A stretch of 59,196 nucleotides of DNA, taken from the IMG/VR virus record IMGVR_UViG_3300025357_000013, positions 1 through 59,196 of that record. One strand, written 5' to 3'. The stretch is from a virus. Lineage: Duplodnaviria > Caudoviricetes. The notes under the pieces are model-generated. The model saw only the letters and a program-made list of their open reading frames with translations. It was not told the origin of the DNA and did no database searches. Shown in pieces: positions 1-54,693 of this stretch. How positions within the stretch are numbered: the first letter of the stretch is position 1; each line of letters begins with the position of its first letter. Made by a program: the position numbers and the translations under genes.

Positions 1-161
1 TGAGCTGCTCGAAGTTGGTGTCCACGATCTTGCCGTCAAACACCATGGCGAGCTTGGGAAGAAGCTGACGTGAAGGCTCGACTGCCGTGCGCTCGGTGTT
101 CTCTGGCAGCCAGCGCGCAATCGCACAATGGCCTGCGCTGGGCTCCAGCGCTTTTTCACCC
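1..161. repeat. Terminal direct repeat (assembly circularisation overlap), left copy
   Basis: 1-161 matches 59036-59196 except position 127 (A vs C). The repeat lies inside a coding sequence whose frame continues across the join. Confidence 0.95.
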
Positions 162-3100
162 GGCAGCAGCTGCAGCCATTCGACCATTTTGAGCCCCAAA
201 GGCTCGGGGGTTGCGAAATAATCCGCCCCTTCCTGCGCCTTGGTTTTGCTGGTCTTTTTCTGGGTTCCGTAATAGAAGGCTTTGGCGCGGTCCCATTCGG
301 TGAGCGCTTCATTGGCCAGGCGGTCGCGTTCCTTTCCGCCCTTGCCCTCATCCTCCATCCCTGCGGGGTAATCTCCAGACTCTTCAAACCCGGCGATAAA
401 CGCATCCTTGAGTGCTCGGGCCTGTTCGCCCATGCCGAGGTTCTCTGCAGCACTGGCGCGCTGCGCGATCGTGGTCGCAAACGCCCACCTCTCCCAGTTG
501 GTTCCAGTGTTGAGGTAACGGAATATGGCGTCCGTAACCTGACCTGTGCGGTAGATACGGCCTTCCTGCTGGATTGCTGTCGTCGGCTGCGTCGGCTGCC
601 CCAGATTCAGAAGTACGCGCTGATGTTTGCCGGTGGTATCGTGAAGACTGATACCCTCCTTGCCTGCCGCTGACTGCACCAGGATCACTTGCGGTCCACT
701 GGCGTCGTCTTGAAACTTTTCAACATTGGCTCTGCGAACCTTTGCGGGAACGTCGCCATTGAAGAGTAAAACGTCTGGGAATTCGCGCCTGAAGACCTCG
801 ATCGGGTTCGGCATCGAGGCGAAATCGATTCCGATCAGATCTTTGAATTCCGTATTGAACTTGTCGAGCGCCTCATTAAAGAGCGGGTTGCTGGTCCGAT
901 TGATCCTGAATGGATGGAATCCGCCGCCTTTCTTGTAGTCATGGAACACCACGACCTTGCGGCCGATCGCCATGTGCTCCTTGACGTGCTTGATGACCTC
1001 AGACGCTTTGATGGCTTCCAAAAGGTATCGACGGGACAGATAGTCGAACTTGTCGCCTACCGCGTCCTCCAATTCGCCTACGCCATTCGGGTCGCCGCCT
1101 TCATCCTTAATCCGATCGGCTTCGTCGTGGAACCATTCCAGCGCTTGATCGATCCGCGTACCGATCGCAGACTCCACCAGAATGAATCGACGATCATAGT
1201 CCGCCGCCACATCCAGCATTCGACCAGAGAGAGATCCGCGCTTTTTGAGCCAGGTATTGAATTGCCGCTGCATCAAACCGCTGTCGACCTTTGCATCCGG
1301 CTTGGTGAGCTTGTTGTAACGCATCCGATAACCGAAATGCGTCATAAAGAATCGGTCTTTATTGCTGCCCTGGTTGTAGCCCCTGAACTCCTTCGATTCG
1401 TCGGATTGCCCTTCGCTGTAATCAAAGAGGTAGCCGTTCGCCCAATCGACCGTGGGCTCATACGCAAACGGGGTGGCTGACAGGAAAAGAGATCGGGGCC
1501 TTGATGCGTTTTGTGAAGCAGCGACGTCGGCCTTCACTTTTTCCAAGGCGGCTGACCACTTGGCTCCCGCAGCTGCGAGCTTGGGCTCAATCACCGCAAG
1601 GAGTTTCTGAAGATCAGCGACGGTCGAATCCATCGTGTCTGAATTCGAAATGGTCTTATTTGCGTTTTCAACCTGTTTACTCAGGTCTTCAATCTCATCC
1701 CGCAGATCCCGGTGCAGCATTTCTGCGCGGCGGTACGCCCCATCCGGATGCTTAGTGATCGCTCGAAGGTTCTGGATGACCTGAGTCGGCTTGCCGCTGC
1801 CATCCTGCATCAGGTAGTGCGCTTCGTCCGTGACGGTCAGATCCCAGTTGCGATCGGCCAGCGCATTGTTTGAGCCAAAATTCGCGTAGGTGGTGATCGT
1901 GATGCCTTTGCCGGCATCCTTGGTGTCATCGAGTCGGTTGATCGGAAGGTTCAGGATCTTTCCTGACTTGATCCAGTCCTCAATGATCTTGTCGTTCGGG
2001 GCAAGAATGATGATGTTGGTTTTGCCAAGATTGGCAAACCGCTTGATGACGCCAAGACCCGTAAAGGTTTTGCCGGTGCCGGTGCCGTTGGTAAACAGCA
2101 TTCCGTAACCATCGGGGGCGCTGAATCGCTTTTCTGCCTTTAGGACGTCTTCCTGTTGTCCCGGGAGGAGCGCTGGCAGGGCGGCCTTAATCTCATCCAG
2201 CCCTTCGCCGTTATGCTTTTGCGCATCGGCTGTCGTCTGTTCGGCTTGGTCTGCCTTTACTTCAGATCGGCTTCGAGCAGCTGCCTTAATTGGTCCTGCT
2301 GCATTGGGTTCAACGGGCGATCCGCTGACGCCAACAAGATCGCCTCCGCTACCGAGACGATCTCCGGCATCGCTGTCCGCAGATTCGGTTGACCCTCGAT
2401 AAATCGTGAGATCGCTAGGTTCTCTAGGAGATACGGTTTCACGTCCATGTAGCTCGCTGCTACCGAGTGTCCGTGCTTCTCCTTCACCTTGTTGTATTCC
2501 TGCCCCTCGAACTCCGCCATTTCGAGCGGATCCAGAGCGAACGCCTTCTTGGCCCAGTCCGTTTTGAGTGTCTGCGTTTTCGCGATCTCGTTCCAGATTG
2601 GAGTCGCTATTCCGGTCAGTGACATTGGTTTCACCCTGATGAATTTCTGCTAGGGATTCTACGCTGACGACGTCTTTCTTCGTATCGGCGCCTTGATCCC
2701 GGTACTTGCCAGACATTGCAATGTAAGAGCCTTGCAGGTGGTCCAGCGTGATCGAATCGGCTGCTGCATCCCCAAACTTGGCGCGAATGGTGTCCAGCGC
2801 AAACTTGGAGGCATCCTTAAATTTGTGATATCCGAGGCGGAATGCGGCATCCAGAAGACGCGCAAGGACCGGAATCAGCTTGGCTTCATCAAGCTCATTG
2901 GTCGGGACCGCTTTTTGCACGAACAGGTTGGCATCGAGGAAAACCTGGCCCAGATCCTTGAGCGCGTCATCAAGATCAGCCTGCGCCTTCTGAGCACCTT
3001 CTGAGGTCGGTGTTGCCGGTTTCTCTGCAGCCTTCAATCGATCGATGCGATTGCTGGGCTCGGAGAATACGTCGGCCTGCCGATTGTCCTGATCAAAGAG

Positions 3101-6100
3101 TCCGCCGGATATTTCCTGACCCGTTGCGTTGCGCTGGCGCGCCTTTTCCTTTGCGTAGGCCTCTACAGCCTCTTTATCGGAGCGCTGCTGATCTTCCTTG
3201 GTGGGTGCGCCAAATAGGTCATCGACCAAATTAGCCGAACCGCCTTTTTGTTTTGACGTTTCCCTTATGCGATCAGCCAGCCGATCTATCCAACCAAATT
3301 CATTGGCCTTGATTTGATTATTGATTTCACCGATGAGGCCTGTATCAAGTCTTTGCCCTATTTCTGAGTTGGCAAACCGTTGCGGCGTGAGCTTTCCTTT
3401 TTTGGCCTCATCGCGCAAAACATCCAATTCAAACAAGGCATCGTCATGCGAAAGAGGCCCAAACGTTTCGTAAGCGGGTTGGCCGGTAATCTGATAGGCG
3501 GCATAGTTGATGTTTTGAATTGGCGCACTGGTTTGGCCAGACAACGCTTGTTCCAGGCTTTTCCGCACCAATGGGAAATACTGGCCCTTGCCGGCCGTCA
3601 TATCTTTGGCGGCTTGCTCAAAGATGCTTTGAACTTTGGCGCTTCCAAATTTGGAAATAGCCTGCTCAATCAGAGCTTCGGTTTCCTTGATATTTTGGTC
3701 GTCTGAGGTTTCTTCTGGCGATAAGGATTCAGCCTTGGATCCTTGATTCAATGGTTTGAGAATGCTCGGTACAACGGCAGGCTGTTTTCCAAACAAATAC
3801 TCTTCAGCAGCGTCTTTCGATGCTTGCGGAACGTCATTGCGACCAATGTCATTTAGGAATTGCCCCGAATTGAATTCGTCCAGGCGATGCAAGGCTTCGT
3901 TGTAGGCGTTTTTGATAAGCCATTGAGTGACTTTGGCTTCACCCTGCCGGCCAATAGCCCCATCCTTTCCGTTAAAGTTCGGGAATGGGCTTGTTTCGCG
4001 ACCTGAAGAAGTTCTGACAACTTCTCCGGGTGAAAGCATCATTCCCACCTGGCCTTGGCGAATCTCGGCTTTATTTGTCCCTACGTCTTGTTTTGCGCTT
4101 CCAGTTCCGCGCCGATCAGCTATGGCTTTCTTGAAATAAGCCAGCGTAATCGGGGGAGGTGCATTAACGGTTTCGTAATGACTTTCGTAATATGCGTATA
4201 ACTCCTCGGGGCTCATGTTGACCCAAGGGGCTCGGGTTTCATCAATGAGGTCATGCGCCCCATCAACATCAATCTGCACCAGCCTGCTTTCAGCGATATT
4301 GCCTCTGGATCCAAGCGGAATGGCTGATACCCCTTCTCGGGTCAACATGCCTTCTGGAAGTTTCTTTAGTTCCTTTTCGGCTTGCGCTATTTCTTTTTCA
4401 ATTCGTTTACGATCATACGCGCCCTTGGTTTTTGTGAGCCTGCGCTCAAGGCTCTCAATGCCCCAAATAAGATCCGCCCTTTGCTGTTCCTGTTCCGGCG
4501 AAGCAAATGACTCTTTGCGCGCCTTTCGCGCAGCGCGGCGCTCCTTGATGGGCGCTAGGGCTTCTTCTCCTCCTTGCCCTTCCTGTTCGCCTCGCTGAAT
4601 TGCTTCAGCGTCTCCTTGTCTTTCTCGTCCGGTTTCTTTCGTCCCATCATTGCCTTCAGGAGACTCGCTCCCTCCGGCGTGTTCCAGCGATTCTTCTTGC
4701 TGTCCACGATACTTCCTCAGTCTGTCGAGGACATCCTGTCGGGTCGCCTTCTGGCGCTCACCGAAAAGATCCTCTCCCGGGTTATTGGATTCTTCAAAGG
4801 CAAAATCAGCGGCGTCGGTCAGCGCCTCGATCGCCATCTTATTGCTTCGGGGATTATCAGCAAAGAGCGCAAGGATGTCTGCAGTCCCTGGCTGATGCGT
4901 GATATCGATCTGCTTTGCGATCTGCTGCATCGTAAGACCGGATCGCTTGCCGTTGACGATCGAGATTGCGGCCTCGGCCACCAGATCACTGATATCTTCA
5001 TAGCCGGTCCCTTCAAGGCGCGCCATTTTTGGAGCTACCCGGGCAAGGGCCGACATGACCAGTCTGGCTTCAGGATCGGCTGCTTGCGAGAAGAGCCGCA
5101 CCAGTTCGTCATTCCGGTAGGCCTTGAAGAATATCGATGCTTTCAGGCGGTCATAGGCGTCTCGGTTTGGGGTTCCGTCAGTATCGAGAAGGGCGCCCTG
5201 CTCGTTTTCCGGCATGGTCCGGACAAATTGCTTGACGGTGCGCTCATTGATTTCGCCGTCATCATTGAAGTCGAGCCCACCCAGATCGATGCGCTGGGAG
5301 TCGTTTTTGGCTTTCTCAAGCGGTGAAAGCTCCAGCCCGTTGCCGATATTTGATTCATCGCCAATATCCTTGGTGAGATCGCTCTCCGACATGACGCGAA
5401 CTAGAATCGGCCTTGACATGACGCCACCGACAACGGTTGGCTCAATGCCGTGTCGATGTTGATCGGAATACATGCCGTGGACGTAATCGAAGGCAGAGCC
5501 TTGCTGATGGGCTTTCTGCAAACCCGCGACCCGGCCATTGCCGGCAATCACCTTGAATTTGCCTTTCGGAATGTCGTCATATTCAGGGTTGGGCGAACCA
5601 TCCGCCTTATGAGACGGCACCAGGTTCCACGCCTCAATGGCGGCGTATTGGAACGGGATCTCGCGGTTTTTAGCGGTGACCGCAATATCCTTGTTGCCGA
5701 GTTGGATGGCAGGGATATTCCCACCGACGACAACGGGCGCTCCGTTGGCAAAATCATTCCCCGGGCCCAGCCGCAAATAATGCGGCCTTGCCGCAATCGA
5801 CTGCATCTGCTGGATCGATGCGGGGTTTGATCGATCACGATTCTGGATGACCGGCGCTTCGGATTCCTTGCGCTTCCCTAGTGAATGTCCACTGTCTCCA
5901 CGATCGCCAGCGTCCCCGGCTCCAGTGGATACAGATTCAGAAACGCCACCAGTTCCGCCGCCAGCTGATCCTCCAGTTGATCCGACAGCTGCAGCTCCAG
6001 TTCCGACACTAGATCTTTCAGTTGCGCGTCTTCCGCCTGAAGTTTTCTCAATTCCGCTTCCAGTGTTTCCTTCGGGATGATCGGCATCTTGATAGACCTC

Positions 6101-8806
6101 TGGAACAAAGTTGCCCATTTCGGCGCGGCGAACAAGGGATTCGAGCGAATCAGCCAGCGCGGTCTCACCGTTGTCTCTTGCGGCGAGAGCCTTTTGCTTT
6201 AATCGCTCGATACCTGCCTGAGTTTCTTCACTCAGTCCTCGATGTCTTCCTGGCTCGGAGCTTTGCCGATCGGTTCCGGCTTCGGCATCGGAGGCGCTTT
6301 CACGTCCGTCCATTCCGGCATTTTGTTTTCCGGGCGCGGAGGAATCCCCTTCCCGTCGTTGTTCCATTCGTTCTGTTCGATTGCCATCTTGGCTCTCCTG
6401 TTCTTGATGTAAACGCTGATTGGCCGCCAATGTGGCATCGAACGCATCGCCTGGATGATCGTGAATGCTTTCGACATTCCCGTTACCAGAGACGACGGCG
6501 AACTTGCCATCCGGGGTTTTCTGGACCGAATACGGGGTTAGCAGCAGCCCTTCTTGCTCTTGGCCGCCTTGGGACGACTCAGACCCGGTGCTGCCGGCAT
6601 GATCTTGTTGGGATTGGTTCGTTTGATCGCCTGCTTGACGGCTTTCGGCTGATCCTGAACTTTGGACAATGGGATTTTCGGCATTGGATACTCCTTGGGT
6701 TTTGGTGCTTTCTTGGATTCCGGGTGATTCAATCTGGCCCGAAATGGAATTTGGCGCAGGCGACAGCGCATCCAGTGCGCGACGTTTTGCCAGTTCTTGA
6801 CGCGCAGCCCGACCGCGTTCGAGGCCGCTGCTGTATTCATTGGTGTCGTTCTGAACGATCTGACGGAATCCGGGATCCGTCCGCAGCACAGACAAAGGCG
6901 TTTTGATCGTGTCGTCGTAGATGGCGCGAGATTCATGCGTCTCACGAACCGGGGCAAACGCATCCGCAAAAGGCTGGTCATGCCGCGCATCGCTTTCCTG
7001 AAGGCGACGATGAACCGCTGCTGCGCTCCCGGGTGCGCCCATCAGGGCGGTCTGGATCACGGTCTGGTGGAGGGTGTCTTTGACCTGCTTGAAAAGATCC
7101 TGGGCCGTTGCTTCGGGGTTCAGGCCGACGCGAGACTTATCGATCCCAAACTGCGCCAGGGTCGTCCCCTCCTCGCCTGCGATCTGTTCCGCCATGGTCT
7201 TGACGAATTGCTTCTCAAAGTCGCGCCAGTTGCCTCCGGCTGCGCGCTTCAGCATGTTGACCTGGTCTTTGAAGCCCAGCTTCTCGCCAAGGTACTCAGC
7301 CGCTCCCATGCCGACGCTTCGGGTGAGCGCTTGGGGCTTACTGAGTCCGTGCTCGATGCCGTTGGCGTACTCATCCCCAGCGACCTGACTGCTCATCATC
7401 AAGAGCGGAATGGTCTGACCGCCCGTAAACAACCCTACGGCATAGCCCGGTGCGTTGGAGATCGTGGACGCGATCGCGCCTTCCAGATTCCGGTTGAAAT
7501 CGTTCGGCGCCTCACCCATTTCGGTTTGGCGCATTCCCAGTCGCTTGCGCGCTTCAAGCTGTGCGCGACCGTAGCCTGCTGCGCCCGGGACACCCAGCGA
7601 TTCACCGACATCGGCCACCATCTTGTTGAGGCCGGCCGCCTGCTGCTTGAGGATGTCCCCGCCTTGAATGACGCCTCGCGTAATGGGGCTTGCGTTTCTG
7701 AGCTCTTTGCTGCGCTCAAAATTGAAATCCGTGGACTGAGCTTGACCCTTGATTGGGGCTGCATTGAAATCCGCTTCACGCTCGGCCATCGCCTGAGCTG
7801 ATTTGGGATCCATGCCATTACTGCGGTTACGGGAAGCAATGTCTTCGACCCGGCCACCAAAATCCTCGTTGGCAATCGATCCGCCCTGGTACTTCTTGTT
7901 GAAGTATCGAGAAACCGCACCCAAAGGTCCGGGCTCGCCCATAAAGCGCTTACGCTGATCGGGTGTTGCCGACTCATAAAGGTCGCGGACACGATCCATG
8001 TATTCAGGCTTGACCGGGACGCCCAGTTCTCGATGAAGCTGGATCAGATCCGGATCTGCCTTGATGCGATCCTTTTCCGGAATGCTTCCAGAATAGGAAG
8101 CCCGATCCAAGCCGACCATCTTGGGCTGGCCGTAGGCGGCGTATTCGGGTGAATTTGGATCTTGGGCCGCAAGGTATTCACGGCGCTGCTCTTTCGAAAC
8201 CGGGAGCTTGAATTGTTCGGCAGGCTCAATGTGCTCTACAGCGGATTTCACTGCGCTCAGGCCGCGCTTGAGTAGGCCAGGCTCTTCGGCCTTGATTGGT
8301 TCAGGTGCTTTCGGTCTTTCAAGCGGCTCAAACTCCATGTCATCGGTGAGCTTGATGCCGGCCGCCAAAGGCGGTTCGGATGCAGGCGTAGGCTGGTATT
8401 CGCCCCGACGACGACGCGCCCCAATCGGCTCAACGTGCCACGGCTCATGCCCCATCGGGAAATGAAGGCCGTAGTTGGCCGCATTTTCATGAACCCACTT
8501 TTTGACGTCGTCACTTTCATACCCAAGATCACTGGCCAGATCATGGTTGTGCATCGAGCGACCGGGAGGCGCGACGTTATGACGCGCAGCCGTTTCCGAC
8601 CCATACTTTTTGATGGCTGCATCGTAAAGCTGGGCCTGACGCTCGTTCGATCGGTATCCCGAATTGACCCATACTTTTCCCGGCGCATCCGAGATCAGTC
8701 GATCAAGGTTGCCGTGAAACTCTGAAGGACCGGCGCTTTCGGGGCGCGAAACGTCTTCTTCAGGAAGGTCTACAGGGTTGCCGCTCTTGAGGTCGAATAC
8801 TGCCAT
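1..8806 (-). CDS. Giant DarB-like polyvalent virion protein, 5' part. Continues across the window end into 59035-54690, about 4,383 aa in total
   Basis: ATG at 8806 (MAVFDLKSG). Same frame as ORF 54690..59081 after circularisation, and the ORF track shows no stop-terminated ORF in this frame. Motifs: M15/VanY peptidase (SGYRS..Q..LY, APPGRSMH..LASD, EPWH; ~8420-8720), DdrB-like ParB (QNRDRS, AGNGR, PILVR, SN..LSPLEKA; ~5260-5850), SF2 helicase (NGTGTGKT ~2066-2089, DEAH ~1817-1829), MTase start (DYFATPE, LEPSAGH). Confidence 0.88.
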   Translation of the reverse strand, partial: MAVFDLKSGNPVDLPEEDVSRPESAGPSEFHGNLDRLISDAPGKVWVNSGYRSNERQAQLYDAAIKKYGSETAARHNVAPPGRSMHNHDLASDLGYESDDVKKWVHENAANYGLHFPMGHEPWHVEPIGARRRRGEYQPTPASEPPLAAGIKLTDDMEFEPLERPKAPEPIKAEEPGLLKRGLSAVKSAVEHIEPAEQFKLPVSKEQRREYLAAQDPNSPEYAAYGQPKMVGLDRASYSGSIPEKDRIKADPDLIQLHRELGVPVKPEYMDRVRDLYESATPDQRKRFMGEPGPLGAVSRYFNKKYQGGSIANEDFGGRVEDIASRNRSNGMDPKSAQAMAEREADFNAAPIKGQAQSTDFNFERSKELRNASPITRGVIQGGDILKQQAAGLNKMVADVGESLGVPGAAGYGRAQLEARKRLGMRQTEMGEAPNDFNRNLEGAIASTISNAPGYAVGLFTGGQTIPLLMMSSQVAGDEYANGIEHGLSKPQALTRSVGMGAAEYLGEKLGFKDQVNMLKRAAGGNWRDFEKQFVKTMAEQIAGEEGTTLAQFGIDKSRVGLNPEATAQDLFKQVKDTLHQTVIQTALMGAPGSAAAVHRRLQESDARHDQPFADAFAPVRETHESRAIYDDTIKTPLSVLRTDPGFRQIVQNDTNEYSSGLERGRAARQELAKRRALDALSPAPNSISGQIESPGIQESTKTQGVSNAENPIVQSSGSAESRQAGDQTNQSQQDHAGSTGSESSQGGQEQEGLLLTPYSVQKTPDGKFAVVSGNGNVESIHDHPGDAFDATLAANQRLHQEQESQDGNRTERMEQRREGDSSAPGKQNAGMDGRESASDAEAGTDRQSSEPGRHRGLSEETQAGIERLKQKALAARDNGETALADSLESLVRRAEMGNFVPEVYQDADHPEGNTGSGIEKTSGGRRATERSSVGTGAAAVGSTGGSAGGGTGGVSESVSTGAGDAGDRGDSGHSLGKRKESEAPVIQNRDRSNPASIQQMQSIAARPHYLRLGPGNDFANGAPVVVGGNIPAIQLGNKDIAVTAKNREIPFQYAAIEAWNLVPSHKADGSPNPEYDDIPKGKFKVIAGNGRVAGLQKAHQQGSAFDYVHGMYSDQHRHGIEPTVVGGVMSRPILVRVMSESDLTKDIGDESNIGNGLELSPLEKAKNDSQRIDLGGLDFNDDGEINERTVKQFVRTMPENEQGALLDTDGTPNRDAYDRLKASIFFKAYRNDELVRLFSQAADPEARLVMSALARVAPKMARLEGTGYEDISDLVAEAAISIVNGKRSGLTMQQIAKQIDITHQPGTADILALFADNPRSNKMAIEALTDAADFAFEESNNPGEDLFGERQKATRQDVLDRLRKYRGQQEESLEHAGGSESPEGNDGTKETGRERQGDAEAIQRGEQEGQGGEEALAPIKERRAARKARKESFASPEQEQQRADLIWGIESLERRLTKTKGAYDRKRIEKEIAQAEKELKKLPEGMLTREGVSAIPLGSRGNIAESRLVQIDVDGAHDLIDETRAPWVNMSPEELYAYYESHYETVNAPPPITLAYFKKAIADRRGTGSAKQDVGTNKAEIRQGQVGMMLSPGEVVRTSSGRETSPFPNFNGKDGAIGRQGEAKVTQWLIKNAYNEALHRLDEFNSGQFLNDIGRNDVPQASKDAAEEYLFGKQPAVVPSILKPLNQGSKAESLSPEETSDDQNIKETEALIEQAISKFGSAKVQSIFEQAAKDMTAGKGQYFPLVRKSLEQALSGQTSAPIQNINYAAYQITGQPAYETFGPLSHDDALFELDVLRDEAKKGKLTPQRFANSEIGQRLDTGLIGEINNQIKANEFGWIDRLADRIRETSKQKGGSANLVDDLFGAPTKEDQQRSDKEAVEAYAKEKARQRNATGQEISGGLFDQDNRQADVFSEPSNRIDRLKAAEKPATPTSEGAQKAQADLDDALKDLGQVFLDANLFVQKAVPTNELDEAKLIPVLARLLDAAFRLGYHKFKDASKFALDTIRAKFGDAAADSITLDHLQGSYIAMSGKYRDQGADTKKDVVSVESLAEIHQGETNVTDRNSDSNLERDRENADTQNGLGQEGVRSGSARNGGVRGAGIQQGEGEARTLGSSELHGRETVSPREPSDLTIYRGSTESADSDAGDRLGSGGDLVGVSGSPVEPNAAGPIKAAARSRSEVKADQAEQTTADAQKHNGEGLDEIKAALPALLPGQQEDVLKAEKRFSAPDGYGMLFTNGTGTGKTFTGLGVIKRFANLGKTNIIILAPNDKIIEDWIKSGKILNLPINRLDDTKDAGKGITITTYANFGSNNALADRNWDLTVTDEAHYLMQDGSGKPTQVIQNLRAITKHPDGAYRRAEMLHRDLRDEIEDLSKQVENANKTISNSDTMDSTVADLQKLLAVIEPKLAAAGAKWSAALEKVKADVAASQNASRPRSLFLSATPFAYEPTVDWANGYLFDYSEGQSDESKEFRGYNQGSNKDRFFMTHFGYRMRYNKLTKPDAKVDSGLMQRQFNTWLKKRGSLSGRMLDVAADYDRRFILVESAIGTRIDQALEWFHDEADRIKDEGGDPNGVGELEDAVGDKFDYLSRRYLLEAIKASEVIKHVKEHMAIGRKVVVFHDYKKGGGFHPFRINRTSNPLFNEALDKFNTEFKDLIGIDFASMPNPIEVFRREFPDVLLFNGDVPAKVRRANVEKFQDDASGPQVILVQSAAGKEGISLHDTTGKHQRVLLNLGQPTQPTTAIQQEGRIYRTGQVTDAIFRYLNTGTNWERWAFATTIAQRASAAENLGMGEQARALKDAFIAGFEESGDYPAGMEDEGKGGKERDRLANEALTEWDRAKAFYYGTQKKTSKTKAQEGADYFATPEPLGLKMVEWLQLLPGEKALEPSAGHCAIARWLPENTERTAVEPSRQLLPKLAMVFDGKIVDTNFEQL
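2257..2625 (-). CDS. Nested 122-aa ORF in the +1 frame of the giant gene
   Basis: AGGGTG-6 nt-ATG. MSLTGIATPIWNEIAKTQTLKTDWAKKAF... has globular helical composition, while the giant frame here reads as an R/G/D/S-rich linker. Confidence 0.65.
   Translation of the reverse strand: MSLTGIATPIWNEIAKTQTLKTDWAKKAFALDPLEMAEFEGQEYNKVKEKHGHSVAASYMDVKPYLLENLAISRFIEGQPNLRTAMPEIVSVAEAILLASADRPLNPMQQDQLRQLLEADLK
4555..4707 (-). CDS. Nested 50-aa basic ORF in the +1 frame of the giant gene
   Basis: GAGGAAG then GTG start. MDSKKNRWNTPEGASLLKAMMGRKKPDEKDKETLKQFSEANRKGKEEKKP, TAG stop. Below the ORF-track size cut-off. Confidence 0.45.
   Translation of the reverse strand: MDSKKNRWNTPEGASLLKAMMGRKKPDEKDKETLKQFSEANRKGKEEKKP
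5878..6087 (-). CDS. Nested 69-aa acidic coiled-coil ORF in the +1 frame of the giant gene
   Basis: GAGGT-8 nt-ATG. MPIIPKETLEAELRKLQAEDAQLKDLVSELELQL... shows a heptad pattern. Confidence 0.55.
   Translation of the reverse strand: MPIIPKETLEAELRKLQAEDAQLKDLVSELELQLSDQLEDQLAAELVAFLNLYPLEPGTLAIVETVDIH
6232..6387 (-). CDS. Nested 51-aa Pro-rich ORF in the +1 frame of the giant gene
   Basis: AGGAG-7 nt-ATG. MAIEQNEWNNDGKGIPPRPENKMPEW... Confidence 0.5.
   Translation of the reverse strand: MAIEQNEWNNDGKGIPPRPENKMPEWTDVKAPPMPKPEPIGKAPSQEDIED
6538..6684 (-). CDS. Nested 48-aa Lys-rich ORF ending in CC, in the +1 frame of the giant gene
   Basis: AAGGAG-6 nt-ATG. MPKIPLSKVQ...AAKSKKGCC. Third codon positions are G/C-rich in this frame. 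Confidence 0.5.
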   Translation of the reverse strand: MPKIPLSKVQDQPKAVKQAIKRTNPNKIMPAAPGLSRPKAAKSKKGCC

Positions 8807-8812
8807 GGGGTG

Positions 8813-10144
8813 TTACTTGCTGGGGGTAACAGGAATCGGTTCGCCAGTTTGGTAGGCGTAACCGTTGTGTTTGATAACGGGGATCTTCTGGGCTGGGTTC
8901 TTTGGATCTTTGATGAATCCACGCTCACCATCCTGAGCTACGCGATGGAGCTTCTCCTGTTTAACGCCCGGGGAGTAATCCATCATGGTCTGAACGTCTC
9001 GGGTCTGGCTGTCGCGTTTTCCCCTGAGATCGTCATCCGCCTCAACGACCTTGTCTCCCATGCCGTTTAGCTGGAAGTAGTCGCTGGCTTTCTTGCTGTT
9101 GAAGGATTCGGGTTTTGGCGGTTTGGATCGGCTGCCTGCCCCCAGGCCGCTGCGGTCGTTTTTGTCCTGATGCGAGACTTCGGTGTTGACCTTTTCGCGA
9201 TAGAGATCCTGCTTGGTCTGCTCAGTGTTTCCTTGTTCGCCATAAAGGCCGGCATGAGCGCTACGCTCACCCGCAAGGGCCCTGTTAGCGCCTTGAACGG
9301 TCCGCTGGGTCTCGGCCTGTTCATTCCTAAGATCGATCAAGGATCGTTTTTCTGGGTTGGTTGAGGCGCGTTCCAGTGAGTCAGCAAGACGCTTGCGCGC
9401 ATCGGGATCTGCTTCCAGTCGGTGATTGAGTGCAACGATGGCCGCATTCGCGTTGAGGATGTGCTTGGCATCTACAAAGGCGTAGGGGTCATTGGGGTCT
9501 GATGTCCCGTCTCGGCTGGCCCATGCGGTATAGCTGTGGGGCTTTCCGGTTTTGACGTCAGTCCCATCGACCTGAATCCGGCCCGTAAAGAGATTGGGAT
9601 CTTCGTGGTGCTGATCGAATCCGATGAGTTTTTTGCTGGTGACCTTGATTCGGGTTCCTGTTTGGGGATCCACGGCTTCAGAGCCAATCCCGCGATTGTT
9701 GACCCGATAACCATGGAAATCGGACATCGTGCTTTGAAATTCTGGATCGTTGACGTCGCGCTTACCCTGGACGACCTCGCCTGTCATTTGCTGCAGGCGC
9801 TGGACCTTGGGGGTGTCTGCAATCATGTCCCACGGAAGGCCGGTCTTGTTGGCCAGGTGATCGAAGTCCTCATCGCTCACATTGCCGCCGATCGCCAATC
9901 GATTTGATATATCGAGGCTGCGGTTGCGGTCGTTCTCATGGTTGAGCTTCTCGGTTTCCGCTTGGATCTTCTGACGCTCGTAGCCCTTGTTGGCAGCTTC
10001 AAGTCCCAGTCGATAGCGACGATCCTGAGCCTCCTGCTGAAGGAGACGATTATGCTCATCCGTCGAGTGCATCCGATGGTAGGCCTCAAGGCCGCCCACC
10101 AGCCCATTCATAAAGCCTTCTGCGCCGAAACCAAGGTCGGACAT
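8813..10144 (-). CDS. Putative internal virion / DNA ejection protein
   Basis: GGAG-ATG (MSDLGFGAEGFMNGLVGG), charged coiled-coil N-terminus, located immediately upstream of the giant gene as in podovirus ejection modules. Confidence 0.6.
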   Translation of the reverse strand: MSDLGFGAEGFMNGLVGGLEAYHRMHSTDEHNRLLQQEAQDRRYRLGLEAANKGYERQKIQAETEKLNHENDRNRSLDISNRLAIGGNVSDEDFDHLANKTGLPWDMIADTPKVQRLQQMTGEVVQGKRDVNDPEFQSTMSDFHGYRVNNRGIGSEAVDPQTGTRIKVTSKKLIGFDQHHEDPNLFTGRIQVDGTDVKTGKPHSYTAWASRDGTSDPNDPYAFVDAKHILNANAAIVALNHRLEADPDARKRLADSLERASTNPEKRSLIDLRNEQAETQRTVQGANRALAGERSAHAGLYGEQGNTEQTKQDLYREKVNTEVSHQDKNDRSGLGAGSRSKPPKPESFNSKKASDYFQLNGMGDKVVEADDDLRGKRDSQTRDVQTMMDYSPGVKQEKLHRVAQDGERGFIKDPKNPAQKIPVIKHNGYAYQTGEPIPVTPSK

Positions 10145-10218
10145 GGGGATCTCCAAGATAACTAAGCGTGATTGGATCGCAGCTTCTTATGTGCGCCAAC
10201 TTCCACGATTTGAGAATG

Positions 10219-10240
10219 AAAAAACCCGCCGAAGCGGGTT
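10219..10240 (-). terminator. Rho-independent terminator
   Basis: AACCCGC-TTCG-GCGGGTT followed by a T-run on the minus strand. Confidence 0.75.
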
Positions 10241-10263
10241 GTGTGGGGTGATTTTGCTGAGGG

Positions 10264-10950
10264 TTATAAAAGACAGGCCAAAAGGGACACAAGCCCTGTG
10301 TCCTCGGCACTTGCCGCAGCGATAGAGGCCATCGCCTCACCAGCTCCTCCGCCTCCTGCAGCGCCTGCAGTTGCCGCCTCTCCGCCCGCAGCTGCAGCTT
10401 CGCCACCAGCTTCCGCACCAACATCTGATCCAACTTCTGCCCCTGTGTCCGCCCCGACCTCTCCTCCTGCGTCTGCAGTCGGCTCCGTCAGGACCGGCTC
10501 ATTGACTTCTTCCACCTCATCCTCGGCTTCAGGCGCTTGAGGCGTACCGTTCTCGGCTTGTGGCTGTGGGGTGCTGGGTTTTGCGTTGAGATCGTTGAGG
10601 CTGGCTCTTGTTTGTGAAACGGCTGGAGGATTAGCTTCATATTGGCTGGCCAGCTGTTCGGTGTCTGCGGTTTCCGCATCCGTTGGGGAGACCTGGCTGT
10701 CCGGTTTAAGCGCGTTCTGCAGGGTGTAACTGGCGCCGAGCTTTCCGGCGGCGTTACTGAGTCCGCCGCTCATGTAACCGCCAGCCCCAAGACCCACTGC
10801 CTGCCCTGCCGCATTCCATTCGCCTGCCGTGCGCTGCGCGTCCATTTCGCGATTGAAGTTCAAGCGCTTCGTTTCGTTTTGAGCGACATTCTTCAATAAA
10901 TCGTTTGCCTGTGTTCGGTAATCCACACCGAGATCGATTAAGCCCGCCAT
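10264..10950 (-). CDS. Putative ejection/pilot protein, Ala/Gly/Glu-rich
   Basis: 228-aa ORF with a GQAVGLGAGG segment and a G/A-rich hydrophobic C-terminus; position in the module. Confidence 0.55.
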   Translation of the reverse strand: MAGLIDLGVDYRTQANDLLKNVAQNETKRLNFNREMDAQRTAGEWNAAGQAVGLGAGGYMSGGLSNAAGKLGASYTLQNALKPDSQVSPTDAETADTEQLASQYEANPPAVSQTRASLNDLNAKPSTPQPQAENGTPQAPEAEDEVEEVNEPVLTEPTADAGGEVGADTGAEVGSDVGAEAGGEAAAAGGEAATAGAAGGGGAGEAMASIAAASAEDTGLVSLLACLL

Positions 10951-16620: not shown

Positions 16621-17922
16621 TTAGAGGGCATAGCGAATGATGACAATGCCGGAGCCGCCGTTGCCTCCGTCCCCGCCGCCAGTGGCGCCTTGACCTATGC
16701 CGCCAGCACCTCCGCCACCTCCACCGGTGTTCGATGTTCCAGAAACACCGTTCCCGCTAATAGCACCAGCGCCACCGCCGCCAGCACCGCCAACTCCAGC
16801 AGGGAGGCCGGGACTAGTATAGATACCGCCGCCACCTCCACCGCCGTAATAAGTGGCTACCCCGGAAATAGAGGATGAGATCCCAATACCGCCTCCGCCA
16901 CCAGCACCAGAGCTGCCGCCAGCGGCCCCAGCCCCGCCTGCACCGCCGCCTCCGCCACCACGATAAATGTTTCCAGTTGATGGGGCTCCCCCCGCGTATC
17001 CTTGGCCGGTTGTGCCAGCGCCACCAGAAGAAAACGCACCGGTTGTTTCGCCGCCAGCGCCACCGCCTGACCCTCCGGCTCCCGGATAAAACGTATTACC
17101 GTATGGAGCGCCCCCGCCCCCTCCTATGGTTGAAACCAAAGAGCCAAGAGATGACGCAGCCCCATTTCCTCCTGTTGCTATAACCCCTTGCCCGGAAGCG
17201 CCAGAGCCACCGGCTCCAATGGTAATTGTCTGCGTGGCGTTGATAGTCGCGGAGCCTTGAAGTACGCCGCCAGCCCCGCCGGCTCCGGCGTAAGGACGAC
17301 CACCACCGGCACCACCAGCAACGACTAAATAATCTGCTGTTGCAGAAAATCCGTTCGGAATTGCAAATGTTCCAGATGATGTAAAGGTGTGAATACGGTA
17401 GTTGCCGACAGTTGTAATAGTTCCGCCTGTAGGAGGGCTGATTACAGTGGCAGTTGTACTGGGAGAAACCCCGCCATCAGCATTGGCGACGGTAATGGAT
17501 ACCGAGGAAGACGCAGACAAGCCGTAGATTGCTGATGGTACGGAGACAACTAAGGAAGCACCGGCGTTTGTTGGAGTCCCCGTCGCCGTTGCAGTTGTAG
17601 CGCCCGATGTGAAAGTCACAGTGGCTACCCCAGAACCAAAGTTCAATCCTGCGAAGGTGAGGGTTGAAGCAGCCCCGGCGTAAATGTTTCCTGTAATCGA
17701 AGAGATCGTGGGAATCGCCACGGAAATCTTCAGCCACCCGTTCGACGTATAGTTCTCCATCGCCCCGGTGTCGGTGTTGTACCGCTGATACCCGATGGCT
17801 GGATTTGAAGGTCTTTGCGCCGTCGTACCTGAAGGGATCTGTGCAGCACCCGTGTTTGAGTCTTTAAGAACAACCCCACCGCCGCCAGAGAGAAGGGATG
17901 CAATGCTTCGTGCAAGTGACAT
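16621..17922 (-). CDS. Glycine-rich tail fibre/adhesin protein
   Basis: PSGTTAQRPS module, IPT-like beta domain, YRIHTFTSSG, YLVVAGGAGG...GGSGIVIIRY glycine-rich domain. Confidence 0.75.
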   Translation of the reverse strand: MSLARSIASLLSGGGGVVLKDSNTGAAQIPSGTTAQRPSNPAIGYQRYNTDTGAMENYTSNGWLKISVAIPTISSITGNIYAGAASTLTFAGLNFGSGVATVTFTSGATTATATGTPTNAGASLVVSVPSAIYGLSASSSVSITVANADGGVSPSTTATVISPPTGGTITTVGNYRIHTFTSSGTFAIPNGFSATADYLVVAGGAGGGRPYAGAGGAGGVLQGSATINATQTITIGAGGSGASGQGVIATGGNGAASSLGSLVSTIGGGGGAPYGNTFYPGAGGSGGGAGGETTGAFSSGGAGTTGQGYAGGAPSTGNIYRGGGGGGAGGAGAAGGSSGAGGGGGIGISSSISGVATYYGGGGGGGIYTSPGLPAGVGGAGGGGAGAISGNGVSGTSNTGGGGGGAGGIGQGATGGGDGGNGGSGIVIIRYAL

Positions 17923-54237: not shown

Positions 54238-54693
54238 CTAGATTTGGGCTGCCAGATAGTTCTGCAGCCCAATCTCATCAATGATGCCGAGCTGGGCGGT
54301 ATACCATTCGATATCGTCTTCGGTGTCATTGGTGAGTTTCTGCAGCACCTTGAACGTCTGCCAATCCTGTTCGTCATCGTCGGCGGACTGCATGAGGTCC
54401 GTAAGGCTACGAAGAACGCGGGTCTCGGTGGCAAGGTCCGCCTCAAACATGGCTTTCACGTCCCAGCTGGATTGTGCCTTAACGGGCAGTTGCGGGATGT
54501 AATCAGGCCAGCCTCCCAGCTGCTGAATCCTCCGAATCACTCGATTCGCGTGTCCGCGCTCTTCCTTTGCCGATTCTTCATATCGTTTGGCCAGCTTTTC
54601 ATAGCCGCGAAACTTCAGAATCTGGGCCTGTCCCGCATAGCGGACATTGGCGCTGATTTCGAGGGGAAGATGCTTGTTCAGCTGATCAATCAT
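54238..54693 (-). CDS. bfr: Bacterioferritin-like protein
   Basis: Colinear with Bfr: LN..L..E..A...Y, ES..E..HA...I.RI..L.G.P, M...DLA.E, W...L..I..IGLQNYL.AQI. Confidence 0.85.
   Translation of the reverse strand: MIDQLNKHLPLEISANVRYAGQAQILKFRGYEKLAKRYEESAKEERGHANRVIRRIQQLGGWPDYIPQLPVKAQSSWDVKAMFEADLATETRVLRSLTDLMQSADDDEQDWQTFKVLQKLTNDTEDDIEWYTAQLGIIDEIGLQNYLAAQI

Follow-up and report, generated by a model that had tools for sequence, protein, structure and literature searches.

Sequence evidence that at least one, and probably three, small genes are embedded out of frame in the inter-domain linkers of a DarB-like polyvalent phage gene

Giant proteins of the polyvalent and DarB-like kind are used widely by phages and plasmids as counter-defence weapons, and they are annotated as single genes. 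The locus described here raises the question of whether the linkers between the domains of such a protein can also encode separate small proteins in a second reading frame. The window, that is, the whole stretch of 59,196 nucleotides analyzed, is a complete tailed-phage genome (~59 kb). A first-pass annotation had proposed that its uninterrupted 13-kb giant gene contains five SD-led ORFs in the +1 frame, and that the linkers are dual-coding and hide small genes. On recomputation, the coordinates, strand, and common +1 frame of all five ORFs were correct, the SD-like motifs quoted ahead of them are present as stated, and the giant frame is indeed unbroken. The five ORFs lie on the minus strand and encode 48, 51, 69, 50, and 122 amino acids (aa) (ORF1 to ORF5, respectively). 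Our comparisons support at least one of them as a gene, and probably three: ORF5 is the most certain, followed by the probable ORF4 and ORF3, while the proposal does not stand for ORF1 and ORF2, which evolve almost neutrally and have no homologue in the relatives searched.

The giant gene is 13,152 nt long and encodes 4,383 aa on the minus strand, running from 8806 to 1 and then from 59035 to 54690, with its stop codon at 54690–54692. Positions 1–161 of the contig overlap 59036–59196, and this terminal overlap of 161 nt with one mismatch points to a circular or circularly permuted assembly, in which the giant gene continues across the join. The 5′ two thirds (2–8806, aa 1–2935) carry Pfam domains VanY peptidase (aa 45–126), ddrB-ParB (aa 986–1139), ResIII (aa 2215–2346), and Helicase_C_4 (aa 2692–2786), and the 3′ third after circular closure (54690–59035, aa 2936–4383) carries a methyltransferase small domain (MTS) and LPD38; every one of VanY, ddrB-ParB, ResIII/Helicase_C_4, MTS, and LPD38 is over the Pfam cut-offs. 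Several unrelated conflict-type enzymatic or DNA-binding domains are thus joined to an LPD in one phage polypeptide, the make-up that characterizes polyvalent proteins. The product would consist of peptidase, ParB-like, SNF2-type helicase, methyltransferase, and LPD38 domains connected by hydrophilic, disordered linkers. The phage context is given by matches to portal, major head protein, terminase, and internal virion protein, and the giant gene is the final gene of the (late) virion operon. Its nearest cultured homologues (47% identity) carry the product name ‘DarB-like antirestriction protein’, and we call the gene DarB-like, in the style of P1 DarB, from these product names and the helicase-plus-methylase composition alone.

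The first-pass annotation treated an open frame preceded by an SD motif as evidence of a gene, an argument that does not survive comparison with synonymous shuffles. Taken alone, this combination is no more than chance would give and does not discriminate. The giant gene contains 108 stops in the +1 frame versus 111.8 ± 6.0 expected from 2000 synonymous shuffles, nine +1 open runs of at least 100 codons versus 8.5 ± 1.9, and seven SD-led +1 ORFs of at least 45 codons versus 5.7 ± 1.9. Given the amino acid sequence of the giant protein, the probability that the +1 frame is open is 0.94 for ORF1, 1.00 for ORF2, 0.57 for ORF3, 0.94 for ORF4, and 0.11 for ORF5. Moreover, the five ORFs are a selected subset of the 41 open runs of at least 40 codons in this frame, and the longest two (211 and 202 codons) fall within domains.

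Codon usage is the informative part of that first-pass evidence. The giant-frame reading across the five ORFs is a G/S/R/D/E/Q-rich linker between Pfam domains, as had been noted, and a switch of G/C-ending codons to the nested frame, previously seen by eye, was borne out by calculation: giant-frame GC3 in the five segments is 0.26–0.47 versus ~0.6 expected from the amino acids and the gene’s own codon usage (z = −2.0, −2.6, −6.2, −3.3, and −5.6 for ORF1 to ORF5). A codon model prefers the +1 frame in all five ORFs, a result matched by equal-length windows elsewhere in at most 0.03% of cases, with one false positive at 57751–57601. A second measure comes from 116 control windows elsewhere in the gene, where the median +1-frame pN/pS is 1.68, no window drops under 0.75, and the value is never lower than that of the giant frame. 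In the comparisons that follow, purifying selection acts on the +1 frame and not the giant frame beyond reasonable doubt in ORF5, and probably in ORF4 and ORF3.

ORF5 (2257–2625; ATG at 2625–2623, stop codon at 2259–2257) encodes an all-helical protein of 122 aa and is preceded by a weak SD-like GGTGA (2631–2635), 5 nt before the ATG. Read in the giant frame, the same DNA (2237–2650, aa 2053–2190) gives a disordered G/S/D/E/R-rich linker that is stop-free in all embedded copies. In tblastn searches, the nested-frame score exceeded the giant-frame score in each of the first six relatives. When 70 alternative-frame runs were used as controls, a consistent win for the alternative frame was found solely in the ORF5 run, where it was ahead in 32 of 32 loci (3772 versus 1789 bits). 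The conservation of the +1 frame expected by the first-pass annotation is found for ORF5 in 28 of these 32 related loci, where a homologue lies in the +1 frame within a giant open frame of 761–5383 codons; the +1 frame is open for 126–210 codons in the 28 loci, and ORF5 itself measures 120–129 codons among embedded copies.

The two frames can be compared in 25 distinct embedded copies, which form 300 pairs. The most variable class of sites is the third position of the nested codons in 275 pairs and the third position of the giant codons in just one. Likewise, amino acid identity is 0.48 in the nested frame versus 0.31 in the giant frame, and the nested value is the higher one in 299 of 300 pairs. 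The giant frame contains no stops in any of the 25 copies, versus 0.5–6.5 expected from shuffles, and the equivalent frame of standalone ORF5 copies has 1–17 stops. Judged from these alignments, this is true dual coding, in which the giant frame over ORF5 is merely held stop-free. All 29 distinct family members have the ATG, and 25 of them carry an SD-like core at the same place (four are without it). Measured against the close relative L002, pN/pS is lower in the +1 frame (0.50) than in the giant frame (1.22). AlphaFold (AF2) predicts a confident fold for the nested product (pLDDT 91.8, pTM 0.85) versus a pLDDT of 50.6 and pTM of 0.11 for the giant-frame reading of the same DNA. Together, the alignments and models establish ORF5 as a conserved, independently initiated, 122-aa predicted protein with a predicted fold, and we regard it as almost certainly a real embedded gene.

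The ORF5 family comprises 559 clusters (50% identity) at E ≤ 1e−3; the best 150 of these are 105–566 aa long, and none is a giant protein. Some copies stand alone in bacteria, including one within a Lacibacter type I R-M locus. We found no Pfam match for ORF5 at E ≤ 1 and none recorded among the 120 relatives listed, no PHROG family common to more than one of 47 members, and no matching fold in the PDB (best Foldseek E = 1.4), BFVD (best E = 0.19), or VIA (best Z = 4.4, rmsd 3.7, 79 aligned residues). The claim that standard gene callers would miss such ORFs holds for long contigs, such as Serratia phage Parlo and Ruegeria phage 45A6, where the ORF5 homologue is without annotation; it is also absent from the feature listings of Klebsiella phage ZX1 and two Vibrio phages, which are all that was consulted for these three. 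The claim fails for short metagenome contigs, in which gene callers predicted ORF5 homologues hundreds of times. The neighborhood of ORF5 is nearly constant: the N-terminus of the helicase comes next in 26 of 28 embedded loci (two loci have no helicase there), and the helicase-methylase module starts 55–100 nt after ORF5. The identity of ORF5 correlates with that of the helicase (r = 0.80, matched by none of 2000 permutations), which points to vertical co-inheritance rather than homing.

Two other ways of producing the ORF5 arrangement were weighed. A programmed +1 ribosomal frameshift could give the giant protein an alternative folded C-terminus, or a frameshift error could have arisen in assembly; both frames are open, and so are a few codons of the +1 frame before the ORF5 ATG. 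However, most copies have a +1-frame stop 2–43 codons before the conserved methionine, which is universal and usually accompanied by the SD-like core, and standalone copies begin at the same methionine. An artefact is excluded because the two-frame arrangement recurs across 25 distinct assemblies made independently and is also present in finished phage genomes. We consider this explanation scarcely credible. Alternatively, the segment may be a mobile insertion with its own selfish gene, read through in the host frame in the manner of the ShiLan endonuclease gene, which has the same architecture of a complete out-of-frame ORF over a host frame kept open as a loop or linker (PMC11855218). The occurrence of the family outside giant genes and the two embedded loci without a following helicase are compatible with mobility, but the absence of a nuclease or other Pfam domain from ORF5, its fixed position ahead of the helicase, and the parallel divergence of the two make such an origin very unlikely. 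The preferred reading remains a gene initiated at its own ATG.

Evidence for selection on the two shorter candidates comes from one informative relative, L002, and a 332-nt fragment, L062. ORF4 (4555–4707) encodes a Lys/Glu-rich peptide of 50 aa from a GTG preceded by GAGGAAG, and lies at a mosaic junction. L002 retains the GTG, an AAGGAG, and the identical stop, with 78% peptide identity. Only 4 of 33 synonymous sites differ (baseline 0.467, P = 2.7e−5), making ORF4 the strongest window of the entire gene, and the +1 frame has a pN/pS of 0.27 where the giant frame has 0.96. In L062, which is 97% identical, both substitutions within ORF4 leave the nested amino acids unaltered and alter those of the giant frame, while five of six substitutions upstream of ORF4 fall at giant codon position 3. 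ORF3 (5878–6087) encodes a Leu/Glu/Asp-rich, helical-looking peptide of 69 aa that is kept in L002, where its ATG, stop, and C-terminal motif are retained despite a 21-codon in-frame deletion. The +1 frame of ORF3 has a pN/pS of 0.53, compared with 0.83 for the giant frame; synonymous-site suppression reaches P = 0.02, a level to be read against the ordinary helicase region, which also has windows with P = 1.4e−3. The start and stop codons of both ORFs sit in motifs conserved in the giant frame too, so the retention of the ORFs is not independent evidence. Among 5.8 billion proteins, ORF3 has no homologue besides its own and ORF4 is represented by four proteins, that of the window included; further homologue searches found no loci of either beyond L002 and L062. 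Nevertheless, the +1-frame pN/pS of both is lower than in all 116 controls, which indicates that both are probably real. As lineage-specific genes, we rate ORF4 as quite probable and ORF3 as somewhat less so.

ORF1 (6538–6684, 48 aa) and ORF2 (6232–6387, 51 aa) have a weak codon-usage signal and a codon-usage signal alone, respectively. Compared to L002, their only close relative, purifying selection on the +1 frame is absent (pN/pS 0.92 and 0.99 in a saturated comparison), pN/pS is 0.8–1.0 whichever frame is read, and each of the three codon positions differs at 0.49–0.64; tblastn of relatives (32 loci) returned no homologue of either peptide. Both frames being almost neutral, each of the two is unsupported and unlikely to be a gene, although the saturation leaves room for a very fast-evolving peptide. 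Both would be by-products of linker composition.

Could all five ORFs be by-products of this kind? Hydrophilic linkers lack codons with T at position 2, which leaves the +1 frame free of TAA, TAG, and TGA; their purine-rich Gly/Glu/Lys/Arg codons produce SD-like strings, and N/D/H followed by G/A/V/D/E produces ATG. The synonymous shuffles match the number and length of open runs and SD-led ORFs, the amino acid sequence nearly guarantees an open frame in ORF1, ORF2, and ORF4, the stops of ORF1, ORF2, and ORF3 coincide with the first Leu codon past the linker, and ORF1 and ORF2 are unconstrained in either frame. Composition does not account, however, for the better conservation of the +1 frame in ORF5, for which a chance origin is already refuted, or for its 559-cluster family with standalone members and its pLDDT-92 fold; nor does it account for the low +1-frame pN/pS of ORF3, ORF4, and ORF5 relative to every control, or for a GC3 deficit that persists after amino acid correction. 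Chance as the source of all five is highly improbable. The opposite extreme is a hidden operon of five expressed genes, with ORF1 and ORF2 as fast-evolving, disordered, lineage-specific peptides. Codon usage favors the +1 frame in all five, with the top score in ORF2 (0.26 per codon), L002 has Met-initiated +1 ORFs at the positions of ORF1 and ORF2 with the same end point, and only 2 of 16 synonymous sites differ in ORF1 (P = 0.0045). Against this stand the near-neutral evolution of both ORFs and their lack of homologues; furthermore, the codon model does not flag the L002 counterparts, whose positional stops derive from conserved giant-frame Leu codons, and related strains show a 3-nt deletion at the ORF1 stop codon. 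A five-gene operon is therefore improbable.

ORF3 and ORF4 face a separate alternative, in which synonymous suppression reflects a nucleotide-level element, either a conserved recombination joint or an RNA structure. The mosaic junctions at the ORF4 linker make it a serious alternative that the nucleotide sequence is conserved there for the sake of recombination. L062 shares only its 332 nt (97%) centered on ORF4 before a different downstream module, strains of runs X7 and X8 replace 3655–4482 directly after ORF4, strains of run X7 replace 6094–6230 directly before ORF3, and P0125 shares just the C-terminal half of the ORF4 peptide. Differences in ORF4 at nested positions 3, 1, and 2 number 13, 6, and 8 of 51, a bias that is not significant by a hand chi-square estimate. 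Yet such an element fails to predict low pN/pS in the +1 frame of ORF4 and ORF3 with a giant frame near 1, a +1 codon usage that matches the genome, or the nested-silent nature of both L062 substitutions in ORF4, and dual coding already operates in the same gene at ORF5. We regard a nucleotide-level element as unlikely. The best explanation, held with good confidence from sequence comparison, is that the three linkers containing ORF5, ORF4, and ORF3 are dual-coding inside a DarB-like polyvalent gene.

Under dual coding, one late mRNA would be read twice: translation of the giant frame would produce the linker, and an internal SD with an ATG or GTG would direct the synthesis of a separate small protein in the +1 frame. 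The same stretch of DNA would then be both an inter-domain linker and a still-expressed small gene. A search for RNA runs containing the stretch listed none. We infer that neighboring genes were fused by read-through of an older small gene in its −1 frame, in which, owing to how the genetic code is built, any ordinary coding sequence carries purines at codon position 2 and consequently yields a polar, flexible peptide. The first-pass annotation had put forward chaperones, inhibitors, or anti-defence effectors as candidate roles; for ORF5, what bears on function is its position next to the helicase module and a complex prediction. The ORF5 protein may act with the helicase module as a partner, assembly factor, or regulator, a tentative suggestion to which we give a little less than even weight. 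A weakly supportive complex prediction for the two scored 0.49 (runs of 0.49, 0.52, and 0.00) versus 0.00 for the best of three controls, with contact agreement of at least 0% and partner pLDDT of at least 78 across runs; of 80 solved complexes, 58 attain the mark for such predictions, as do 2 of 110 mismatched pairs, and passing scores of 0.60 or below include 7 of the 80 solved complexes and both passing mismatches. If the association is real, the DarB-type helicase-methylase would have a dedicated partner in the ORF5 family. The linkers of relatives L004/L006, L024–L026, and L010 also contain +1 ORFs that look like proteins and show this signature of selection and codon usage, but are unrelated. 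A broader and rather doubtful reading is that giants are built by −1-frame read-through and that their linkers conceal expressed small genes, each partnering the adjoining enzyme module as a stoichiometric partner, packaging chaperone, or inhibitor; the linkers of giants would then generally conceal, and perhaps give rise to, small proteins that escape annotation.

The outcome is at least one conserved, predicted-folded protein family encoded out of frame within polyvalent giants. Devoid of Pfam, PHROG, or known-fold assignments and placed directly before the helicase-methylase module, this family is a candidate extra component of a known anti-restriction system, for which genetics is feasible in cultured phages. 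It also offers a concrete route for gene fusion without loss of the intervening gene. Current gene callers exclude such embedded genes by design, and a cheap comparative recipe for finding them elsewhere is a dip in giant-frame GC3 combined with a +1-frame pN/pS lower than that of the host frame.

The giant gene resembles the polyvalent proteins of phages and conjugative elements, including P1 DarB-type helicase-methylase proteins (Iyer, Burroughs, Anand, de Souza, Aravind 2017, PMC5512222), in joining VanY, ddrB-ParB, ResIII/Helicase_C, methyltransferase, and LPD38 in one polypeptide. Unlike here, embedded linker genes are not part of the class as described in the passages of that paper matched by a term search, where ‘overlap’, ‘frameshift’, and ‘linker’ were not found and second-frame coding does not appear. 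The dar operon of P1 does contain an annotated ORF, iddB, within ddrB, the product of which is related to the ParB-like domain of the giant; iddB lies on the opposite strand with no listed function and is not comparable to the same-strand +1 genes described here. DdrA of P1 (121 aa), considered as a relative of the ORF5 family, was rejected (hhalign probability 0.1).

ShiLan-type out-of-frame HNH endonuclease insertions sit in phage DNA methylase genes (Arsenault, Gosselin, Gogarten 2025, PMC11855218). ShiLan shares with ORF5 a complete out-of-frame ORF with its own start and stop over a stop-free host frame, which forms a loop presumed harmless in ShiLan and an inter-domain linker in ORF5. 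ShiLan is, however, a homing HNH nuclease and a sporadic mobile insertion (PMC11855218), whereas ORF5 has no nuclease domain, is fixed, and co-diverges with the helicase. ORF5 was accordingly rejected as a ShiLan-type homing insertion for its lack of an HNH or homing nuclease match, its fixed pre-helicase site, and its correlation with the helicase.

The Rz/Rz1 spanin genes of lambdoid phages and the embedded genes of phiX174 are textbook examples of +1-frame embedding, in which one mRNA gives both products. As in the giant gene, a phage gene lies wholly within the +1 frame of another. In those pairs, however, both proteins are small and coupled in function, whereas here the linker that hosts a folded 122-aa protein is a disordered part of a multi-enzyme protein of 4,383 aa; ORF5 differs further in being the more conserved frame and in having standalone homologues. 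The usual model of overprinting in viruses is that a new disordered protein is born within an old gene. Viral overprinting and the ORF5 locus have in common two same-strand frames, one disordered product, and a codon usage that indicates the older frame. Here, unlike the usual case, it is the large host gene that has the disordered reading and the small embedded one that has the folded, codon-adapted reading, which suggests an origin by read-through fusion rather than de novo birth.

The assembled phage genome closes on itself. Its first 161 nt (1-161) are repeated at the end (59036-59196) with one mismatch (A/C, 115 versus 59150), so the molecule closes to ~59,035 bp; this marks the assembly as circular or circularly permuted, with the giant gene crossing the junction. 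PHROG matches to a portal, a major head protein, a large terminase, an internal virion protein, and tail fibres identify the source as a tailed phage. Placed after the structural genes on the minus strand, the giant gene runs from 8806 to 1 and then from 59035 to 54690 as a single open frame of 13,152 nt (4,383 aa). Its product contains Pfam domains for a VanY peptidase, ddrB-ParB, ResIII and Helicase_C_4, a small methyltransferase domain, and LPD38, which makes it a polyvalent protein as defined by Iyer et al. 2017 (PMC5512222). The best cultured homologues, named ‘DarB-like antirestriction protein’ or ‘PLxRFG protein’, share 47% identity from aa 2206 onward, and positions 1-8806 gave no megablast match to phages or to plasmids. 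A ~100-aa module of the giant protein (aa 1752-1851; window about 3253-3552) is 53% identical to aa 813-909 of the giant protein of a related contig, L002, where it occupies a different place; this displacement indicates module shuffling within polyvalent genes. Elsewhere in the genome, three consecutive paralogous genes (16621-17922, 17935-19506, and 19908-21287) all match phrog_2295 (function unknown), two of them also phrog_31104, which suggests triplication of a virion or tail-associated gene.

The first-pass annotation had placed five Shine-Dalgarno (SD)-led ORFs in the +1 frame of the giant gene, all on the minus strand (ORF1, 6684-6538; ORF2, 6387-6232; ORF3, 6087-5878; ORF4, 4707-4555; ORF5, 2625-2257), and proposed that they form a hidden operon in its linkers. 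The observation is confirmed: positions and frame are as described, SD-like strings are present at all five, and the ORFs lie over G/S/R/D/E/Q-rich stretches between the giant's domains. A +1-frame stop requires T at host codon position 2, i.e., a Phe, Leu, Ile, Met, or Val codon, so in linkers that lack these residues an open +1 frame is unremarkable by itself. Against 2000 shuffles of the giant gene that kept its protein and codon usage, the number of +1 stops (108 vs 111.8 +/- 6.0), open runs of at least 100 codons (9 vs 8.5 +/- 1.9) or at least 50 codons (30 vs 29.8 +/- 2.8), and SD-led +1 ORFs of at least 45 codons (7 vs 5.7 +/- 1.9) were all ordinary. The ORF1, ORF2, ORF3, ORF4, and ORF5 segments stayed open in 94%, 100%, 57%, 94%, and 11% of shuffles, respectively. 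The longest +1 runs (211 and 202 codons) fall in domains, and antisense frames reach 357 codons.

Codon usage is a different matter. The switch of G/C-ending codons to the nested frame, noticed by eye, proved a real anomaly when GC3 was computed: giant-frame GC3 over ORF1 to ORF5 is 0.47, 0.42, 0.26, 0.35, and 0.36, where the same amino acids predict ~0.6 (z = -2.0 to -6.2). When 24 other genes of the phage were used to train a codon model, all five ORFs scored in favor of the +1 frame (+0.02 to +0.26 per codon), as compared to -0.35 per codon over the rest of the giant gene. Beyond the five, the model prefers the +1 frame at one place only, 57751-57601. This candidate sixth embedded gene was rejected: variation there is highest at giant position 3, the normal substitution phase, and the +1 frame is interrupted by stops in L002, so the region is a false positive of the codon model. 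Pfam and PHROGs returned nothing below E 0.09 for the five peptides, and no RNA run was among the sequencing runs listed as carrying this stretch. Frame-specific selection, described below, divides the set: it favors ORF5, ORF4, and ORF3 as genes and not ORF1 and ORF2, so the dual-coding reading of the linkers is partly supported by sequence comparison, for three of the five.

For ORF5, homologues bear out both the +1-frame conservation and the SD conservation that the annotation had looked to. The flanking giant-frame protein, used as query, recovered eleven relatives from IMG/VR; six of them span the segment, and in each of these the +1 peptide outscores the giant-frame translation of that DNA (e.g., 162 vs 105 bits and 143 vs 60 bits). 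As a control, every alternative-frame open run of 40 codons or more, 70 in total, was treated like ORF5, and the alternative frame won only for ORF5 (32/32 loci, 3772 vs 1789 bits). An alignment of seven nested ORFs has 33 invariant columns and an invariant Met. This Met lies 8-9 residues ahead of an invariant IWN motif in 33/33 sequences; the start is ATG in 29/29 distinct copies, 25 of which keep an SD-like core 10-14 nt upstream. In 28 of 32 profile-fetched loci, the ORF lies in the +1 frame inside a giant open frame of 761-5383 codons, with 126-210 codons open. A pairwise phase test on 25 distinct embedded copies (300 pairs) found the most variable site at nested position 3 in 275 pairs and at giant position 3 in one. 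Identity averages 0.48 for the nested frame and 0.31 for the giant frame, the nested value being the higher in 299/300 pairs. None of the 25 copies has a giant-frame stop over ORF5, where shuffles of their own codons give 0.5-6.5, and standalone family copies have 1-17 stops in the corresponding frame. The lack of giant-frame stops, together with nested-frame conservation, implies that both frames are maintained, with protein-level selection on the small gene. Comparison to L002 agrees, with 10/57 synonymous differences (P = 3.9e-6; baseline 0.467) and a Nei-Gojobori pN/pS of 1.22 in the giant and 0.50 in the +1 frame. On this comparative evidence, we regard ORF5 as a real embedded gene.

The ORF5 family is large and anonymous. 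At least 200 proteins matched a family profile, mostly of 122-127 aa and without a Pfam domain. A full HMMER search returned 559 clusters (50% identity), of which 423 have E<=1e-10; lengths among the best 150 run from 105 to 566 aa, and none of these is giant. PHROGs gave two single-member matches for 47 members, longer members (309-566 aa) gave one DUF6794 match and nothing else, the ESM Atlas gave unnamed clusters (best score 0.86), and plasmids gave no match to the ORF5 protein. P1 DdrA, a dar operon protein of the same size, was compared as a possible relative and found to be unrelated. In P1, the ddrB product is related to the ParB-like domain of the window giant, and an opposite-strand ORF with no function listed, iddB (L064:4492-4890), is annotated inside ddrB. 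A tblastn search located ORF5 homologues in five cultured phages (Serratia phage Parlo, Klebsiella phage ZX1, Ruegeria phage 45A6, and two Vibrio phages). In all five, the giant gene is the only feature listed under the match, in line with the expectation that standard gene callers would miss ORF5; in Parlo and 45A6 the homologue proved to be an ATG-led ORF of 129 and 122 aa, respectively, in frame +1 relative to the annotated giant CDS, which in Parlo is CPT_Parlo_081.

AlphaFold, supplied with 47 homologues, predicts a seven-helix globule for the ORF5 protein (pLDDT 91.8, pTM 0.85). The giant-frame reading of the same DNA, with 18 homologues, has one invariant column and essentially no predicted secondary structure (pLDDT 50.6, pTM 0.11). 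Searches of solved and predicted viral structures found no match to the fold (best values: PDB Foldseek, E 1.4; VIA wide, Z 4.4; BFVD, E 0.19). For ORF5, then, both frames are maintained with selection acting on the small one, every copy has the start, and the predicted fold is confident.

What the protein does may be approached through its neighbors. The helicase N-terminus starts 55-100 nt after ORF5 in 26 of 28 embedded loci, and the divergence of the two goes together (r = 0.80, reached by 0/2000 permutations). Complex prediction with the helicase module gave a score of 0.49 (runs 0.49, 0.52, and 0.00) against 0.00 for the best of three controls; the mark used is reached by 58/80 solved complexes and 2/110 mismatches, and those that reach it with a score of 0.60 or under comprise seven of the 80 solved complexes plus both mismatches that passed. 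Contact agreement between runs is at least 0%, partner pLDDT is at least 78, and the model lends weak support to the pairing. The four non-embedded loci among the 32 are Lacibacter cauensis, two MAG contigs on which the gene stands alone, and one ambiguous GC-rich locus. In the L. cauensis chromosome (L043:7317-17429), a standalone gene of 128 aa (10001-10387) lies in the order hsdR, ORF5-family gene, a 310-aa gene of unknown function, hsdM, hsdS, and a 1008-aa reverse-transcriptase protein, a type I R-M and defence island. This context may hint at the function of the family. Our preferred reading, held tentatively and at somewhat less than even weight, is that the ORF5 protein acts as a partner or regulator of the DarB-type module.

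Evidence on ORF4 and ORF3 comes from one relative, L002 (the contig also fetched as L012, L044, and L063), and from a fragment, L062. L002 is the sole contig sharing the N-terminal architecture, at 56-73% amino acid identity; over ~3,700 aligned codons, mismatch is 0.23, 0.17, and 0.505 at positions 1, 2, and 3, and, saturated stretches aside, position 3 changes fastest everywhere except in ORF3, ORF4, and ORF5. ORF4 keeps its GTG, AAGGAG, and stop in L002, with a 78% identical peptide; ORF3 keeps its ATG and stop, with a 21-codon in-frame deletion and 67% identity. Synonymous differences among identical residues fall to 4/33 in ORF4 (P = 2.7e-5), the strongest suppression window of the whole gene, and to 8/30 in ORF3 (P = 0.02; baseline 0.467 for both). 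Nei-Gojobori pN/pS in the giant and +1 frames is 0.96 and 0.27 for ORF4, and 0.83 and 0.53 for ORF3. In 116 control windows elsewhere, the giant median is 0.20 and the +1 median 1.68 (minimum 0.75), and the +1 value never falls below the giant one. With +1 values below all controls, ORF4 and ORF3 are probably genes; their starts and stops sit in motifs that are conserved in the giant frame too. A large protein database contains four ORF4 and one ORF3 proteins. For the ORF3-ORF4 region, neither a single-protein scan of viral contigs nor an alignment scan of metagenomes found any relative, and the alignment scan of viral contigs found only ParB-module relatives whose matches end at the linkers.

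Less probably, the ORF4 linker, which is located at mosaic joints, is conserved as a recombination or RNA element. Apart from the L002 contig, scans for ORF4 found only L062, a metagenome contig of 1,185 nt (1-1185) with 97% identity over just 332 nt around ORF4. The two substitutions that fall within ORF4 alter the giant-frame product and leave the nested one unchanged, and five of six upstream of it fall on giant position 3. Beyond the shared 332 nt, the giant frame of L062 runs into a different module, and upstream it has stops; L062 is either a recombinant or an assembly chimera. Strain mosaic joints adjoin the linkers that hold ORF4 and ORF3. Among the differences listed for public sequencing runs with related strains, 3655-4482 is replaced by 472 other letters in two freshwater runs (X7 and X8), and 6094-6230 is swapped for 147 other letters in X7.

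ORF1 and ORF2 fared otherwise. Compared to L002, the difference rate is 0.49-0.64 at every codon position and both frames have a pN/pS of ~1, i.e., neutral-rate change, which speaks against the two as genes. L002 does have positional +1 ORFs there, with stops on conserved Leu codons; their peptides have no recognisable similarity to ORF1 or ORF2, and the codon model does not flag them. No relative closer than L002 was found in scans of viral contigs and metagenomes, and a 26-nt exact pattern from ORF2 had no match in viral contigs. A 3-nt deletion at 6540, at the ORF1 stop codon, is among the differences listed for X7, X8, and, in part, a third run, X3. ORF1 and ORF2 are treated here as by-products, with their codon-usage oddity left over.

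Other polyvalent giants appear to carry embedded ORFs as well. The codon model flags the ORF5-family site in the giants of 16/16 relatives, plus 0-5 further linker segments each. A pairwise scan of 54 giant frames (+1 pN/pS <0.6 with giant pN/pS >0.7) flagged 921 windows, used for location only: the ORF5-family site in nearly every pair, ORF3 and ORF4 in the window-L002 pair, and additional sites in the relatives L004/L006, L024-L026, and L010/L011. Three of these are protein-like +1 ORFs with an SD and ATG over disordered giant-frame linkers (L004:9657-9869, 70 aa; L025:8945-9172, 75 aa; L010:10416-10715, 99 aa), with +1 pN/pS of 0.13-0.21 in close pairs. An all-against-all +1 peptide comparison, noisy in GC-rich genomes and used only for runs with coding-like codon usage, found no relation between them and the window's ORFs.

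How could a gene come to lie inside a linker? One route would be fusion, in which a small gene between two modules was read through without loss. Read in the -1 frame, the purine-rich first codon position of a gene becomes the new second position, which would yield Gly, Ser, Arg, Asp, Glu, Asn, Lys, and Gln, an ideal linker; stops would be rare because of G/C-ending codons, and the intervening gene could therefore survive the read-through. Translation of the small protein would then begin internally on the late mRNA. Such an origin fits both the existence of standalone homologues and the native codon usage of the nested frame, with escape of the small gene from giants as the alternative direction. 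Embedded +1 genes are familiar in phages, as in Rz/Rz1 and phiX174. Literature searches turned up no account of genes nested within polyvalent or DarB-like genes, and a term search of the polyvalent-protein paper (PMC5512222) met no mention of overlap. The closest published analogue is an HNH insertion that lies out of frame in a phage methylase gene, which reads through it (PMC11855218). Unlike that insertion, ORF5 encodes no nuclease, holds a fixed position, and is co-inherited with the neighboring module; moreover, its segment serves as a linker of a polyvalent protein, and conservation lies with the embedded frame.
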